Virus genome (UHGV): UHGV-0211472
Origin: a virus
Direction: 5' to 3' (one strand)
Length of the DNA: 64,000 nucleotides
How positions within the stretch are numbered: the stretch's first letter is position 1; each line of letters opens with the position of its first letter. Both the position numbers and the translations under genes were made by a program. This document shows positions 28,222 to 38,413 of the stretch, in pieces. A model generated the notes under the pieces. The model made no database searches. It had not been told where the DNA came from and was given only the letters and a program-made list of their open reading frames with translations.

Positions 28222-28425
28222 TTAGTAGAACGAACGGATTTCATCCCACACTTGTTCCTGTTCTTTCCTATAAAAAGAAAGTTGGGTCTTGAACATCTCC
28301 ACTGATGATTCAAAGTTTTTAGATTGTGCAGCTTCAACGAAACGTTCATGTCTGTTGATTTTGCACCGTAACATTAAATACTTGGCTTCAAGTCTCCGAA
28401 GAGCTTGTCTTTTCTCAAGATTCAC
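28222..28425 (-). CDS. hypothetical protein (67 aa)
   Basis: ORF; overlapping alternative 28161..28349 considered less likely. Confidence 0.35.
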   Translation of the reverse strand: MNLEKRQALRRLEAKYLMLRCKINRHERFVEAAQSKNFESSVEMFKTQLSFYRKEQEQVWDEIRSFY

Positions 28426-28840
28426 TTTTCAGATACTCTGACCAGTCACCAGATTCAACCAGAACATCTTGTTCTTCGTCAATATGGTAGATATAGCATT
28501 CAACAATTTCACCTGAATCCATCTTGACGTTGACCAGAGACCTGTTGTAGAAGCTATCTTCAGGGCTATGTTTGTTGTAACCTTCCAGTCGGTCATATGG
28601 ACCTTCCAGACCTGCTTTGTCAGTAGCAAACACTTCTACACGAACAGGCTTATTGTTATTGCTGTGTGCGAGAGAGATGCTCGGGAAGTAGGAACCACCG
28701 TAACGGAACAGATCGAAGTTATCTTCAGTCCAACCTTCACCGATTGACTTAGCACCAGCTCGGTCATTAACTAAATAGTTAGCTTGACCACTTCTCAAAG
28801 ACCCATAACATGCGACTAAAACTTTATTTTGTTCTGACAT
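28415..28840 (-). CDS. gamma-glutamyl cyclotransferase-like (AIG2/GGCT family) protein
   Basis: N-terminal VLVACYGSLRSGQ (YGSL motif) and downstream ...GPYDRLEGY... typical of AIG2/GGCT fold. Confidence 0.65.
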   Translation of the reverse strand: MSEQNKVLVACYGSLRSGQANYLVNDRAGAKSIGEGWTEDNFDLFRYGGSYFPSISLAHSNNNKPVRVEVFATDKAGLEGPYDRLEGYNKHSPEDSFYNRSLVNVKMDSGEIVECYIYHIDEEQDVLVESGDWSEYLKSES

Positions 28841-29372
28841 TCTTGTAACCCTTATGTTGATATTGTAAGCCTTTATGAACAGCTTGCATCGAAGAGTGCG
28901 CTAGATCATTTTCTCGGCAGAATTTTCTGAGGTTAAACACCTCAATCGTCAACCCCTCTGGAGAAACAAAACTCCAGAAATCAGCATTGCCTTCATGACC
29001 TCTATTGAGACCTGTATCAAAAGCATGTTGATTATTCTCAGCGGTTGTAACCCATTCCAAGTTGCTAGGATGGTTATTTAACTTATCACCATCTTTATGA
29101 TTTACGAAGGGTTTATTCTCTGGATTATCTACCCAGACAAGTGCTACAAGTCGGTGATAGAAATGAAGCTTCCTATCAGAGAGTTTGATACGAGCGTAAC
29201 CAGCACGATTAATATTTGCTGCCATGATCAACTCTCTATCTTTCCTATGACGTGTTCTTGTCTTTGGATTGATATGCCAACGATAGTTACTACGAATATG
29301 ACCTTCCTCAGAGATAGAGTATTGCCCCTCGTAACCAGTAATTTCTTTCCACTCCATTGAATAACCCTCCAT
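28824..29372 (-). CDS. HNH homing endonuclease (free-standing)
   Basis: N-terminal WKEITGYEGQYSISEEGHIRS and HNH core VNHKDGDKLNNHPSNLEWVTTAENNQH. Confidence 0.7.
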   Translation of the reverse strand: MEGYSMEWKEITGYEGQYSISEEGHIRSNYRWHINPKTRTRHRKDRELIMAANINRAGYARIKLSDRKLHFYHRLVALVWVDNPENKPFVNHKDGDKLNNHPSNLEWVTTAENNQHAFDTGLNRGHEGNADFWSFVSPEGLTIEVFNLRKFCRENDLAHSSMQAVHKGLQYQHKGYKNVRTK

Positions 29373-29520
29373 AAATTTAAACTATTTCTAGTTCATTACA
29401 TCTTGGCCAGACTTAGAACCATAAGTTGCTACGTAAATTACTTCTGACATTATCTATACCTTTGTTGGTTTGTTTAGTTTATCCGAACTAGCCTCCTCTT
29501 TTCGAAGAGGCTAAAGCAGA

Positions 29521-35434: not shown

Positions 35435-36241
35435 TTATGCTACCTGAAGGAGTTTGATCTGCTGGTCAGCTTCTTTAACGTTGTTCCCGTTAATGATTTC
35501 ATGAAGCTTCTCAATCGGAAGGCGAGAGTGCAATGCCATCAGAGTGGACATGTCACACTGCTGAACAACCTTGTCAACCTGATCGTAAACAAACTTACGA
35601 TTTTCACGATCACTAATCCAGAAGTTGGACAGCGAACGGTATTCAATACCATAGTCTTTATAACGGATTGCAGATGCTTTACCATAGAGTTCTTTACGGC
35701 GAGTATCTTTGTCCATAATTACTGCTGGAAGAGACAGGAAGTAGTCACACAGCACACCCAGCATCATCTGAGTTTGCAGAGTGATATCCAAAGCACCAAC
35801 TACGCCAAGATGTACGTGACCACCGGCAGTACGAAGCCCTTTGTTCTGAGAAGTCGGGGATGGATTCTTCTGACCAGTGAAAGCGTTGAAATCAGGAGTA
35901 CACCCGAAGATGAACGCTGATTCATTGAAAGTCTTCATCTCTTCTTCAGTGAAGATGTGAGAGCTAACACCCGGAGCTGTTTCCATGTCAAGTTTGTTCA
36001 GGACACTGTTGGTGAGATCAATACCACGTTGCATGTTGTCGTTAAACGCTTCAAAGCTGCTCTGTGGGTCAATATCAAACTCAGCCAGTACGTTGTCCTC
36101 TTGAAGACGAACATCCTTAGCCAGAGTGATCTTATCGTCCTTAGAACAACCTAACAGACCAGCTACCGAGGTAATGATACCATTACTGGTGCGAACGAAC
36201 ATCTCGGGATCGCTCCCAATAAGGAATTTGCGCTTAGTCAT
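35435..36241 (-). CDS. hypothetical protein (268 aa), possible second amidoligase-like enzyme
   Basis: FLIGSDPEMFV...TAGGHVHLG weakly resembles the E...E/HVH pattern of 33708..34811. Confidence 0.45.
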   Translation of the reverse strand: MTKRKFLIGSDPEMFVRTSNGIITSVAGLLGCSKDDKITLAKDVRLQEDNVLAEFDIDPQSSFEAFNDNMQRGIDLTNSVLNKLDMETAPGVSSHIFTEEEMKTFNESAFIFGCTPDFNAFTGQKNPSPTSQNKGLRTAGGHVHLGVVGALDITLQTQMMLGVLCDYFLSLPAVIMDKDTRRKELYGKASAIRYKDYGIEYRSLSNFWISDRENRKFVYDQVDKVVQQCDMSTLMALHSRLPIEKLHEIINGNNVKEADQQIKLLQVA

Positions 36242-37205
36242 TGTAATACTCCACTAGTTCAGAAAAGAGAGATGAGATTGTGTTACCAACTTCTTCAAGA
36301 GTAAGACCAGAACTTGGGCCAGTACGCTGAATCAGTCGGGCTGTAAAGTTTTGTACTGTAATGCTTTCCAACTTATTGTCTATTGTTTCACGTTTGTGAC
36401 CATGACAGTTGGACCAGAGTCTTAACCACCCTGACATTGTTTCATACTCGTCTGGGTCTTGATCTTTATCAAGAGCAAATCCTCGTAAGGCCTCTGGGTT
36501 ATGGTTACGAACATAACCATTCTCATTGTAACCAACACCGAAGGGGTTTTGAACCCATACTTGCTTCGTGTACTCATCAGAGTCTACAACCAAAGGAAGG
36601 AATGCTGCTGCTGACATACCATTTTCGATAACAATGGCTGTGTTCTCACCACTCCCATTGGAGGTTCCTCGTTGAGACCATCTACCGAAGAAGTCACGGC
36701 CCAATCCAGCTAACACTAGAGCGATGCCGATGCGTTTACGCTTCAGCCACTCTTCCCTGTCTTCAATTCCTTCTGCTAGGAAATCCATTCCACGATACTG
36801 CCCTTCCAGAATACTACGGAAGAGCATAAGTCCTGTGAAGATCTGATCTGCTGGATGCTCACGAAGGTTGACAGCAACACTATTCGCTGAAGTGATTGTA
36901 AATACGTCACGATAGCAAGACATGGAGTTCATAATGTCTGCTGTTTCAACCAAGTTCTTTTCAATCTCAGATGCAGGGTGATTGTGAAAAGAGTGAGTCC
37001 AGTAATTCAACATCTCCAATTGCAAGTTAATACCACGGTTGAAGCGTCTATAACGCCCATCTTCCGTGATAACTTCGCCATCAATATCATTTACGCATTG
37101 GCCTTGCATGTAGTTGTGGACACCGAAGCACCCACGACCTAAGAACTTCTGTTCCCCTAAATCCTGTTGAAGATTCAGAGGTACGATCGTTGTGGAGATT
37201 GACAT
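36234..37205 (-). CDS. hypothetical protein (323 aa), part of ligase cluster
   Basis: ORF. Confidence 0.5.
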   Translation of the reverse strand: MSISTTIVPLNLQQDLGEQKFLGRGCFGVHNYMQGQCVNDIDGEVITEDGRYRRFNRGINLQLEMLNYWTHSFHNHPASEIEKNLVETADIMNSMSCYRDVFTITSANSVAVNLREHPADQIFTGLMLFRSILEGQYRGMDFLAEGIEDREEWLKRKRIGIALVLAGLGRDFFGRWSQRGTSNGSGENTAIVIENGMSAAAFLPLVVDSDEYTKQVWVQNPFGVGYNENGYVRNHNPEALRGFALDKDQDPDEYETMSGWLRLWSNCHGHKRETIDNKLESITVQNFTARLIQRTGPSSGLTLEEVGNTISSLFSELVEYYND

Positions 37206-37207
37206 AA

Positions 37208-38413
37208 CTAACCTTTTATTTTCCTAAAAAATAATCCGCTCATAACACCATCCCATTCAGAAGATGGAACCACTGAATACTCCGAACTTCGGTCCAGAGT
37301 TCCACTACTAAATCGCTGAACAATGTTATAGATGTTGAACATATCTTTAGTCTCAATACGATTACCGTAGATTAACTTTTCAGCTGTTCTTTCATTTTTA
37401 GACACGCGACGGGTAAAGTTAACCAAAAGGTTATCACCTTTAAGTATCTCTGACCCATCTTTTACTAGATCGGGATGCATCACTGGCAAGAACATTGAGT
37501 TGTTCACTCGTAATTCTGCTGTTTCATCATTCTCATAATGAATCCACTTAAAATCTTCATCACGAAAGTGACCGCATCCATCTCTGTATGACTGTTGACG
37601 CCAAGGCACTTGAAATGCTTCAGCGTATTTATCAGCCATACCAACTGTAAATAGCGACGCTGGGAAGATACAAGCATCCCAATCATTACCAACCAGAGTT
37701 GCTTTCGTTTCACCCAAGAGGTTAGTGTAAGTGCTAACCATTCGTGAGTAAACATAAGCCTGAAGGATTGTCCAGCCTTCAACCAACCATTTATGGAGGA
37801 AGGTTTCAACTTGACTCTCTTCATCTTCACAATAGAAGGTTCGATCTAACATCAAATAGAACAGACAGCGATCAGCAGGAACATTTTCAGTTGCTACACC
37901 CATAAAACCTTTCTCGTGCCAGCGTAAACAGGAGGGACGATCTTTGTCCACAAATGCTTCCATAGCTTCCAGTACAGCACGAGGTGTGGTTCGATGCTCA
38001 GGGTTTTTGTCATTCCAACGTTCAATGTTGTTTTTAAGCTCGCCTTCGTAATCAATAGCACCCCAACCCAAAGCTGCGGATACAGGTTTTTCATCACGCC
38101 AACGTATAAAACCTAACATCTTCATGTGAGTTCCGGAGTTCCAGATATGCTTAATTTTACACATATCCATTTCTTTACTTAACAGGAACTCTTCCCCATC
38201 AGAACTACGAACGTTATCTTTTTCATGCCACACTCGAACGTGCATATTCCACCCATGAGTTGCCTCATACATGTTAAGGTCGAAGTAGTCACCATCTTCG
38301 TCATCGTTTTCATCAACGCCACCGTTATAGTTGCGAAGCTGAAGGAACCCATAACAAGGAGGGTTGACCGTTAAAACATTACCTTCAGTATCTTCTAATG
38401 TTACTGGAAACAT
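37208..38413 (-). CDS. hypothetical protein (401 aa), part of ligase cluster
   Basis: ORF. Confidence 0.5.
   Translation of the reverse strand: MFPVTLEDTEGNVLTVNPPCYGFLQLRNYNGGVDENDDEDGDYFDLNMYEATHGWNMHVRVWHEKDNVRSSDGEEFLLSKEMDMCKIKHIWNSGTHMKMLGFIRWRDEKPVSAALGWGAIDYEGELKNNIERWNDKNPEHRTTPRAVLEAMEAFVDKDRPSCLRWHEKGFMGVATENVPADRCLFYLMLDRTFYCEDEESQVETFLHKWLVEGWTILQAYVYSRMVSTYTNLLGETKATLVGNDWDACIFPASLFTVGMADKYAEAFQVPWRQQSYRDGCGHFRDEDFKWIHYENDETAELRVNNSMFLPVMHPDLVKDGSEILKGDNLLVNFTRRVSKNERTAEKLIYGNRIETKDMFNIYNIVQRFSSGTLDRSSEYSVVPSSEWDGVMSGLFFRKIKG

Follow-up and report, generated by a model that had tools for sequence, protein, structure and literature searches.

The 64,000-nucleotide stretch of the virus genome UHGV-0211472 that was analysed here (referred to below as the window) carries, at positions 28415-38413 on the minus strand, a block of genes that is well supported as the 'amidoligase cassette' formed by gp77-gp88 of the coliphage phiEco32, the block immediately upstream of the primase/helicase gene. 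From the chemistry of the enzyme families and from comparative genomics we propose, with a probability of roughly 0.55, that this cassette would constitute a soluble cytoplasmic pathway for gamma-glutamyl amide chemistry. The cassette has already been described, the copy in the window is an ordinary one from a well-sampled genus, and taken alone this copy adds nothing new on cassette function. What the window provides is a well-annotated, genetically tractable E. coli example, and the handles it offers are the replacement of a gamma-glutamyl cyclotransferase (GGCT) by Peptidase_C26, the near-universal gp85, the often-missed AUU start of the amidotransferase and the make-up of the amidotransferase tail domain. 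With ~10 kb, the cassette takes up about one eighth of a Kuravirus genome and more than one fifth of a LUZ24-like genome. Identifying what it makes would close a gap of long standing for therapeutic phage groups including Kuravirus and Bruynoghevirus, and new enzymology could come from gp85, gp87 and gp88.

Conservation of the cassette across phages

In a nucleotide search, 94% of the 10-kb region aligned at 94% identity with the Escherichia phages FH3, Paul, NJ01, ES17 and others, and the 99 phage records that matched it all belonged to Escherichia or Shigella phages. On sequence grounds the window is assigned to a Kuravirus (phiEco32-like) coliphage of the subfamily Gordonclarkvirinae. Its genes map one-to-one onto gp76-gp89 of phiEco32, the type phage of Kuravirus; those of the cassette are homologues of gp77-gp88, with protein identities of 85-96% to phiEco32 and its close relatives, and their order is identical to that in phiEco32, Paul, 7-11 and Ab22. 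The families PF14395 and PF12224 were found in the window together with a class-II glutamine amidotransferase (GAT-II), an ATP-grasp ligase and GGCT, all encoded on the same strand beside the primase/helicase gene.

The same set recurs in distant phages; several podophage lineages have it, with hundreds of podophages among them. In the common order, genes for proteins of ~400 aa (amino acids) and ~320 aa are followed by those for the COOH-NH2 ligase, a ~205-aa protein, Amidoligase_2 and GAT-II, and then by DUF7195, a small open reading frame (ORF), the ATP-grasp ligase, GGCT, another small ORF and the primase/helicase. This order is shared by Kuravirus, Salmonella phage 7-11, the Pseudomonas Bruynoghevirus Ab22 and UFV-P2, Aeromonas LAh_8, and metagenomic phages whose gp88 is only 32-34% identical; in Salinivibrio CW02 the gene set is kept in a rearranged order. 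To extend the comparison, 80 loci were fetched from IMG/VR with the COOH-NH2 ligase alignment as sole bait, out of at least 584 matching contigs, and were scored with iterated profiles of each cassette component. Amidoligase_2 was present in 79 of these loci, GAT-II in 78 and the ATP-grasp ligase in 73. All four enzymes lay on one strand in 73 of the 80 (median span 4.8 kb), almost always in the order COOH-NH2 ligase, (gp85), Amidoligase_2, GAT-II, ATP-grasp, and where the flanks were complete the three partners were each found in 57 of 57 loci. Such an arrangement is far beyond chance. The initial annotation had described a linked amidoligase, GAT-II, ATP-grasp and GGCT system for making or removing amide bonds, and this description holds: the hidden Markov model searches agree with it and the genes stay linked in related genomes, both in the 73 of 80 loci and in distant named phages.

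When the unassigned ORFs of the IMG/VR loci were clustered, a ~210-aa gene was found directly upstream of the COOH-NH2 ligase gene in 35 of them. It encodes a Peptidase_C26 / class-I glutamine amidotransferase protein (Pfam, 1.1e-21) of the gamma-glutamyl hydrolase / PuuD family, for example at 9412-10008 in locus L075. Among the 57 complete cassettes, 27 carry GGCT and 27 carry Peptidase_C26, one has both, and 53 have one or the other. The contigs with Peptidase_C26, about half of the cassette-bearing ones (L013-L092), are devoid of GGCT and of detectable gp87-like genes. A neighbour-joining tree of the ligase has two large clades, on which the pattern needs only ~3 switches. This distribution fits a non-orthologous replacement of one function, and the feature common to the two unrelated folds is the cleavage of gamma-glutamyl amides. 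The near-exclusive occurrence of GGCT or Peptidase_C26 therefore points to gamma-glutamyl removal as a conserved pathway step, and to GGCT being functionally tied to the cassette.

Genes and enzymes of the cassette

All genes named in the initial annotation are present, on the minus strand and at the positions it had assigned to them. They are listed here together with the remaining ones, from the highest coordinates downwards.

38425..38787, minus strand: gp89-like protein, 120 aa, basic (isoelectric point (pI) 9.9); PHROG 11370, function unknown
37208..38413, minus strand: gp88-like protein, 401 aa; predicted fold with no counterpart in the PDB
36234..37205, minus strand: gp87-like protein, 323 aa; no family match
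35435..36241, minus strand: COOH-NH2 ligase type 2 (phiEco32 gp86 homologue); PF14395, PHROG 3815
34808..35425, minus strand: gp85-like protein, 205 aa; no known family
33708..34811, minus strand: Amidoligase_2 (phiEco32 gp84 homologue); PF12224, PHROG 7469
33632..33661, minus strand: nine-codon upstream ORF (uORF), MKGFTLQVD followed by a stop; read from the sequence
31598..33628, minus strand: class-II (N-terminal nucleophile, Ntn) glutamine amidotransferase-like protein, 676 aa (phiEco32 gp83 homologue); Pfam GATase_6
31362..31595, minus strand: DUF7195 small protein, 77 aa, basic; PF23825, 4.7e-17
31157..31381, minus strand: conserved 74-aa protein (phiEco32 gp81 homologue); PHROG 13464
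29958..31154, minus strand: ATP-grasp ligase, RimK/MptN type (phiEco32 gp80 homologue); PHROG 2599
29703..29951, minus strand: phiEco32 gp79 homologue; a 94%-identical gene is annotated in Paul; PHROG 8339
28824..29372, minus strand: free-standing HNH homing endonuclease; Pfam HNH_3 and NUMOD4
28415..28840, minus strand: gamma-glutamyl cyclotransferase, AIG2/GGACT (phiEco32 gp77 homologue); PF06094, PHROG 2520

Intergenic gaps range from -20 to +11 nt, except for a 79-nt spacer that contains the uORF and for the HNH insertion, and start and stop codons of neighbouring genes overlap; the cassette genes are co-linear and translationally coupled. The HNH gene had been taken for the only interruption of the cluster, which proved incorrect, as the gp79 homologue (29703-29951) and small conserved ORFs including DUF7195 also lie inside it. 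The cassette proteins are predicted to be soluble and cytoplasmic because a transmembrane-grade hydrophobic segment was found in none of them. Judging from their family matches, the invariant glutaminase residues, the ligase motifs and the EVN of the ATP-grasp protein, the cassette enzymes look active.

The assignments of GGCT, the class-II amidotransferase and Amidoligase_2 made in the initial annotation were borne out by profile searches above the curated cut-offs, which the HNH_3 and NUMOD4 matches of the HNH gene also passed. For GGCT, the match to Pfam PF06094 (GGACT) reached 58.2 bits against a cut-off of 22.8 (1.5e-15) and that to PHROG 2520 an E-value of 3e-42; the motifs YGSL (residues 12-15) and LEGY are present, and the GGCT Glu is, by analogy, presumed to be catalytic. 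The Amidoligase_2 protein matched PF12224 with 33.5 bits (cut-off 22; 5.3e-8) and PHROG 7469 with 1.7e-155, has homologues in 302 phage records from many host genera, and is predicted to be an ATP-dependent carboxylate-amine ligase. Four proteins of the cluster had been left unrecognised. Three of them indeed lack a family, and the fourth (35435-36241) is a second amidoligase of the glutamate-cysteine ligase (GCS)/glutamine synthetase (GS) superfamily: it matched PF14395 (COOH-NH2_lig, labelled 'Phage phiEco32-like COOH.NH2 ligase type 2' in Pfam) with 34.7 bits against a cut-off of 25 (1.5e-8) and PHROG 3815 with 2e-118, and its motifs GCxPDxN, RTAGGHxHxG and YGxEYRxLSNxW are invariant across the family. 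Sequence searches of the PDB with both amidoligases, GGCT and the glutaminase domain alone gave no matches.

The ATP-grasp assignment stood in part. The protein encoded at 29958-31154 matched PHROG 2599 with 1e-182, its C-terminal tail matching PHROG 20552, and the motif WVLEVNTAPG, WVLEVNTAPGLTG, lines up with the Mg/ATP site in Ddl and in the alpha-L-glutamate ligase 7qys. It also matched the NCBIfam profiles MptN (3.3e-8, residues 69-251, 33 bits against a cut-off of 350) and rimK_fam (9e-7, 28.5 bits against 143), and in Pfam RimK (0.0073, 16.4 bits against 21) and Dala_Dala_lig_C (0.0038, below the gathering cut-off), so that PHROG, NCBIfam and the EVN motif support the assignment at scores below the curated Pfam and NCBIfam cut-offs. 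We regard the protein as a probable ATP-grasp ligase related to RimK-family alpha-L-glutamate ligases, which should not be filed as RimK. The gp80 homologue further has an acidic linker and a basic C-terminal domain of 82 aa (tail pI 9.85).

No known family was found for the gp85-like protein in profile searches, and its own family comprises only 35 clusters among 1.8 billion representatives. A gp85-family profile recovers 7-11 gp104, LAh_8 gp002, Ab22 ORF22 and CW02 gp8. The family was detected in 69 of the 80 IMG/VR loci, and a gp85-sized gene lies between the two ligase genes in 71 of 78 viral loci; in the window the stop codon of the gp85-like gene overlaps the Amidoligase_2 start by 4 nt. 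gp85 is a near-universal fifth component of the cassette and an obligate neighbour of Amidoligase_2, of which it is likely to be the partner.

The class-II amidotransferase gene begins in an unusual way. In the ORF listing based on ATG, GTG and TTG starts, its frame yields only a 563-aa TTG-start product. The frame is open upstream until a stop two codons before an ATT-TGT pair, and no ATG, GTG or TTG precedes the Cys. Around this point the coding strand reads ATGAAAGGGTTTACCCTTCAGGTGGATTAGAAAATTTGTGGC, comprising the nine-codon uORF, the Shine-Dalgarno sequence AGGTGGA and ATT-Cys. The start is thereby placed at the ATT at 33628, with Cys as residue 2; the uORF contains the Shine-Dalgarno sequence and ends 3 nt ahead of the AUU, and the whole arrangement (33626-33661) is identical in Paul and phiEco32. 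The corresponding codons are ATG-TGT in Salmonella 7-11 and Pseudomonas Ab22, TTG-TGT in one metagenomic phage and ATT-TGY in phiEco32, Paul and another metagenomic phage, and PHROG and NCBIfam profiles align from residue 2. The rare codon AUU is thus the probable start, and the initial annotation, which had placed the start at 33628 with Cys-2, was right on the evidence of the sequence, the starts in relatives and the profile alignments. It should be noted that the phiEco32 record annotates the full 2031 nt (676 aa), that the Paul record contains a 563-aa TTG-start protein without the catalytic Cys1, and that other automated records probably carry the truncated form as well.

The amidotransferase matched Pfam GATase_6 above the curated cut-off (1.5e-14). 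Residues C1, R85, T88, N110, G111 and D128, which align to C1, R73, T76, N98, G99 and D123 of GlmS, are invariant across 14 family members, and the glutamine or gamma-glutamyl pocket of gp83 is predicted to be intact; exposure of Cys1 would depend on the ATT start and on removal of Met. The ~460-aa tail gave a modular predicted model (predicted local distance difference test (pLDDT) 74.8, predicted template modelling score (pTM) 0.31) in which a helix and an OB-like beta-barrel are accompanied by a small beta domain; of its three zinc-binding motifs, two repeat T-(R/K)-x-x-W...CxxC...I-x-W-x-D. Profile and structure searches recognised no catalytic (synthase) domain in the tail, and the ammonia acceptor could be an adjacent ligase. 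The barrel is acidic, with a net negative charge and a pI of 5.25. Binding of nucleic acid by the tail was considered and is not claimed here, given the modest OB-like matches (Z at most 6.8) and the acidity of the barrel.

Together with gp85, gp87 and gp88 are the phage-specific components of the cassette. For gp88, 21 homologues were collected, with many invariant polar residues (C20, H282, D181/R182 and a WRQ motif). Its AlphaFold model is confident (pLDDT 88, pTM 0.89), and the predicted fold had no match among the solved structures in the PDB. Foldseek against viral models returned the orthologue and weaker relatives (probability 1.0, template modelling (TM) scores 0.3-0.5), the latter only in other cassette-bearing phages and often two per genome (GAP52, LAh_8, Proteus 3H10_20, CW02). 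The gp87 family gave no match in profile searches, shares with gp88 the motifs PAD..F..LM..R and W(R/V)Q, and was not significantly similar to it in hhalign (probability 0.16%, E 0.37). Weak chained matches link gp87 with 7-11 gp106/gp107 and LAh_8 gp004/gp005, and Foldseek detected tandem pairs of gp87/gp88-like proteins in GAP52 and LAh_8, on which basis gp87 and gp88 are probable paralogues of a phage-specific fold.

The gp89-like gene opens the tightly packed array and is separated by 11 nt from the gene that follows. Its co-conservation is confined to the Kuravirus / 7-11-like lineages (in loci L001-L004 its homologues lie immediately upstream of the gp88-like gene), and its membership in the pathway is uncertain. 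DUF7195 follows directly after the amidotransferase gene, as it does in loci L002, L003, L006, L011 and L012, and the 74-aa protein has homologues in loci L001-L003; both are without conserved acidic or Gln C-termini. phiEco32 gp79 is an RNA-polymerase-binding middle-gene regulator (PMC8948821) and is itself documented as a middle gene, and its homologue is embedded in the array without being a pathway enzyme. The HNH gene is an insertion between GGCT and gp78 that overlaps the GGCT start by 17 nt. It is absent at this site from Paul and phiEco32, has no orthologue there in loci L001 or L007, and accounts for the ~6% of the query left uncovered in relatives. The gp36-type middle promoter TAATGTATA had no match in the cassette and showed no enrichment over shuffles.

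Proposed pathway and candidate substrates

Gamma-glutamyl carrier pathways for amines include PuuA/PuuD (putrescine), IpuC/IpuF, and GmaS with N-methylglutamate synthase. The cassette resembles the PuuA/PuuD type in that it combines a GS-fold ATP-dependent ligase with an enzyme that cleaves gamma-glutamyl bonds, Peptidase_C26 in one clade and the class-II amidotransferase-like domain in all, and glutamate would be the transient amine handle. It differs in having three ligases and three phage-specific proteins and no oxidase or dehydrogenase step, and none of its proteins reached a curated NCBIfam equivalog cut-off for enzymes of this type. In the butirosin pathway, the ATP-grasp enzyme BtrJ adds a gamma-glutamyl protecting group that the GGCT-fold enzyme BtrG later removes as 5-oxoproline. 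The 2009 work of Iyer and colleagues reportedly also treats BtrJ/BtrG. The cassette has the corresponding pair of an ATP-grasp ligase and a GGCT-fold enzyme, a likeness at the family level only; unlike the butirosin pathway, it has no acyl-carrier protein, decarboxylase or acyltransferase.

By analogy with these systems, the pathway may be pictured as follows. gp84 (with its partner gp85), gp86 and gp80 would each spend ATP to convert a carboxylate into an acyl-phosphate that is then joined to an amine. Cys1 of gp83 would hydrolyse glutamine, or a gamma-glutamyl-amine made by the ligases, and pass on the released ammonia or amine, while the OB/zinc tail of gp83 might dock the substrate or the partner enzymes. 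GGCT (gp77) would finally strip off the gamma-glutamyl group as 5-oxoproline and free the amine, a step taken over by Peptidase_C26 in the other clade. Glutamate would in this way act as a transient carrier or protecting group, as in PuuA/PuuD, GmaS with N-methylglutamate synthase, and BtrJ/BtrG.

As to the substrate, we give about even odds to a low-molecular-weight amine or peptide, a class of which peptidoglycan precursors would make up only a minor share. A host or phage protein is a distinctly weaker candidate and a nucleic acid an unlikely one. The leaning towards small substrates arises because small gamma-glutamyl compounds, and not intact proteins, are what the characterised members of the GGCT and Peptidase_C26 families act on. 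Several points weigh against the proposed pathway. Every mechanistic step in it is transferred by analogy; the ATP-grasp protein scores below the curated Pfam and NCBIfam cut-offs; and the exclusivity of GGCT and Peptidase_C26 reflects few independent events, since the ligase tree consists of two large clades with ~3 switches. A replication module inherited from a common ancestor could explain part of the synteny among Kuravirus, 7-11 and LUZ24-like phages. Furthermore, several large accessory parts would fit enzymes with macromolecular targets better: gp83 carries the 460-aa OB/zinc tail, gp80 ends in a basic tail, and two proteins of 300-400 aa have an unfamiliar fold. Among the objections to a small-molecule substrate, the large docking-type domains weigh most.

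The function proposed for the cassette in the literature concerns the cell wall, and papers that cite Iyer 2009 and Hardies 2013 treat the cassette as a common pathway. As cited in later papers, Iyer, Abhiman, Burroughs and Aravind (2009, Mol Biosyst) proposed that the amidoligase and the amidotransferase modify the wall of the phiEco32-infected cell and thereby prevent superinfection. Duhaime et al. listed a gamma-glutamyl amidoligase, a second amidoligase, an ATP-grasp enzyme, GGCT and a glutamine amidotransferase and, citing Hardies et al. (2013), reported the cassette to be conserved in RIO-1, phiEco32, 7-11, PA11, tf, MR299-2, LUZ24, PaP3 and CW02. After Hardies 2013 (J Virol), as far as that paper is quoted, the cassette has been termed a hypothetical 'peptidoglycan modification' module, and a 2025 paper repeated the description for a LUZ24-like phage. 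No experimental test or substrate identification for any cassette gene was found in the literature searched in full text. The phiEco32-type cassette has the same gene set, order, strand and position upstream of the primase/helicase as that in the window, which differs by the extra HNH gene between GGCT and gp78; the peptidoglycan function proposed for it is a hypothesis that nothing in the window supports specifically.

In the form that we weighed, the three ligases would build unusual stem-peptide linkages, and GAT-II and GGCT would trim them, to block superinfection or prepare lysis. Murein stem peptides do contain a gamma-glutamyl bond and a D-Ala-D-Ala bond made by an ATP-grasp enzyme, and cytoplasmic proteins are compatible with UDP-MurNAc-peptide precursors as substrates; besides, the idea, attributed to Iyer 2009 and Hardies 2013 in the papers that cite them, recurs in later phage genome papers. 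We nonetheless consider it unlikely: Kuravirus receptors are O-antigen and lipopolysaccharide rather than murein (BASEL 2025), which makes a superinfection benefit doubtful, no Mur-ligase, transpeptidase, lipid-carrier or export component was found in or near the cassette in the lineages examined, and by profile coverage the ATP-grasp protein is nearer to the RimK/MptN glutamate ligases than to Ddl. That last relationship speaks rather for modification of a protein, either by C-terminal glutamylation of the RimK/TTL kind or by a gamma-glutamyl-lysine isopeptide that the GS-fold ligases would form in the manner of pupylation, with GAT-II as deamidase and GGCT clearing gamma-glutamyl-lysine remnants. 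The GS/GCS-fold ligases include the Pup ligase PafA, and the substrate of GGACT is epsilon-(gamma-glutamyl)-lysine. Both the gp83 OB/zinc tail and the basic gp80 tail resemble macromolecule-docking modules, and an RNA-polymerase regulator, gp79, is embedded in the array. This alternative is nevertheless doubtful, as neither a tag nor a target was identified (DUF7195 and the 74-aa protein lacking conserved acidic or Gln C-termini), the substrates of known GGCT and Peptidase_C26 enzymes are small molecules, and a mass-spectrometry and cryo-electron microscopy paper on the SU10 virion mentions no adducts, its search having allowed only standard modifications. That the genes form no system at all, being unrelated auxiliary genes placed side by side through inheritance of an early/middle region, is scarcely credible. 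Kuravirus, 7-11 and LUZ24-like phages do share the adjacent primase/helicase and the split DNA polymerase as well, and gp79, HNH and small ORFs unrelated to the enzymes lie inside the block; yet 73 of 80 diverse viral loci retain the four enzymes as a group, with turnover among the small ORFs around them, CW02 keeps the set in another order, and start and stop codons overlap. The Pfam description of PF12224 presumably also records an association of amidoligase, GAT-like and AIG2 proteins that is independent of phages.

The initial annotation had suggested phage DNA or nucleotides, a virion or host protein, or a small metabolite as targets. Of these, bulk phage DNA is the least likely, as DNA of relatives is cut by restriction enzymes and no base-activating enzyme was found. 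Were the cassette to place an amino-acid-derived group on a phage base, this would account for the restriction-modification (RM) resistance of the Gordonclarkvirinae, described in BASEL 2025 as 'remarkably resistant to RM systems', and in which that study found none of the known protection pathways; the window holds 30 EcoRV, 9 EcoKI and 89 EcoP1 sites. The cassette also abuts replication and nucleotide-metabolism genes, the gp83 tail has an OB-like fold and zinc ribbons, and in viromes genes with amidoligase and amidotransferase Pfam domains occur beside thymidine-hypermodification genes (Lee et al. 2021). Like the thymidine hypermodification clusters (Lee et al. 2018, 2021), the cassette is a phage multi-enzyme cluster beside replication genes; it differs in that a dUMP hydroxymethylase or TET/JBP, a 5-hydroxymethyldeoxyuridine (5-hmdU) DNA kinase and an aGPT-Pplase were not found here. 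More widely, the cassette, the non-structural ORFs from 140 aa upwards and the relatives' flanks gave no match to a hydroxymethylase, a 5-hmdU kinase, an aGPT-Pplase, TET/JBP or a transglycosylase. DNA of the cassette-bearing phage tf was cut by RsaI, HpaI, EcoRV, SmaI and HaeIII and was cloned, that of the LUZ24-like phage U17 was sensitive to 11 of 16 enzymes and the most sensitive of four phages tested, and the termini of phiEco32 were mapped by restriction profiling and sub-cloning. In addition, the thymidylate synthase is an ordinary ThyX, the OB-like barrel of gp83 is acidic, and the palindrome avoidance in the window is the signature expected of restriction-exposed DNA. Hypermodification of DNA or nucleotides is for us improbable, and it is more improbable still that the cassette causes the resistance to type I, II and III restriction in vivo. 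Such a role could take the form of a sparse, sequence-specific or labile amino-acid-derived DNA modification; or the cassette might make a gamma-glutamyl-amine, for instance a modified polyamine, that is co-packaged with the DNA or shields it on entry. If true, either version would escape standard in-vitro digests of purified DNA, and gp87 and gp88, both without a counterpart among solved structures, would be the enzymes touching nucleic acid.

Restriction sites and genes adjoining the cassette

The window contains 701 hexamer palindromes against 1074 expected. CTGCAG is absent (14.7 expected), as are GGATCC and GCATGC; CCWGG occurs 4 times (~72 expected) and GAGCTC and CCATGG once each, while GATATC (30), AAGCTT (31) and CAGCTG (22) are not avoided. 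This avoidance bears on the unexplained RM resistance of the Gordonclarkvirinae. A ThyX (Pfam Thy1, 5e-44; 21168-21824, minus strand) is encoded near a dCTP deaminase (DCD, 1.5e-33; 23743-24276, minus strand), and the two look like an ordinary deoxythymidine triphosphate supply for an AT-richer genome. DNA containing deoxyuridine (dU), suggested by the BASEL authors, is disfavoured by this pair. Between the genes for dCTP deaminase and the DNA-polymerase exonuclease subunit lies one for a 452-aa protein (24298-25656, minus strand), annotated as 'nucleotidyltransferase' in relatives (PHROG 12715, no Pfam match), which the BASEL authors flagged as a possible DNA-modification gene.

In the larger relatives of the 7-11/Privateer type (L002, L003, L006, L011, L012), genes for phosphoribosyl pyrophosphate synthetase, nicotinamide/nicotinate phosphoribosyltransferase and Nudix are found upstream of the cassette, along with the tellurite-resistance-type genes TerC, TerD and vWA-TerF; none of these is present in the window. 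Scans for sigma-70 promoters and terminators yielded nothing informative beyond hairpins at 38986-38969 and 40571-40552, and a second gene for a free-standing HNH homing endonuclease is located at 41085-41600 (minus strand). The primase/helicase gene is split (exons 26948-28195 and 26152-26694) by a group I intron of 253 nt without an ORF (26695-26947, minus strand; Rfam RF00028, 86.3 bits, E 1.4e-20), with T as the last base of the 5' exon and G as that of the intron. When the exons are joined in silico, the resulting primase/helicase of 596 aa matches the intron-less gene of Paul at 596 of 597 positions, including the stop.

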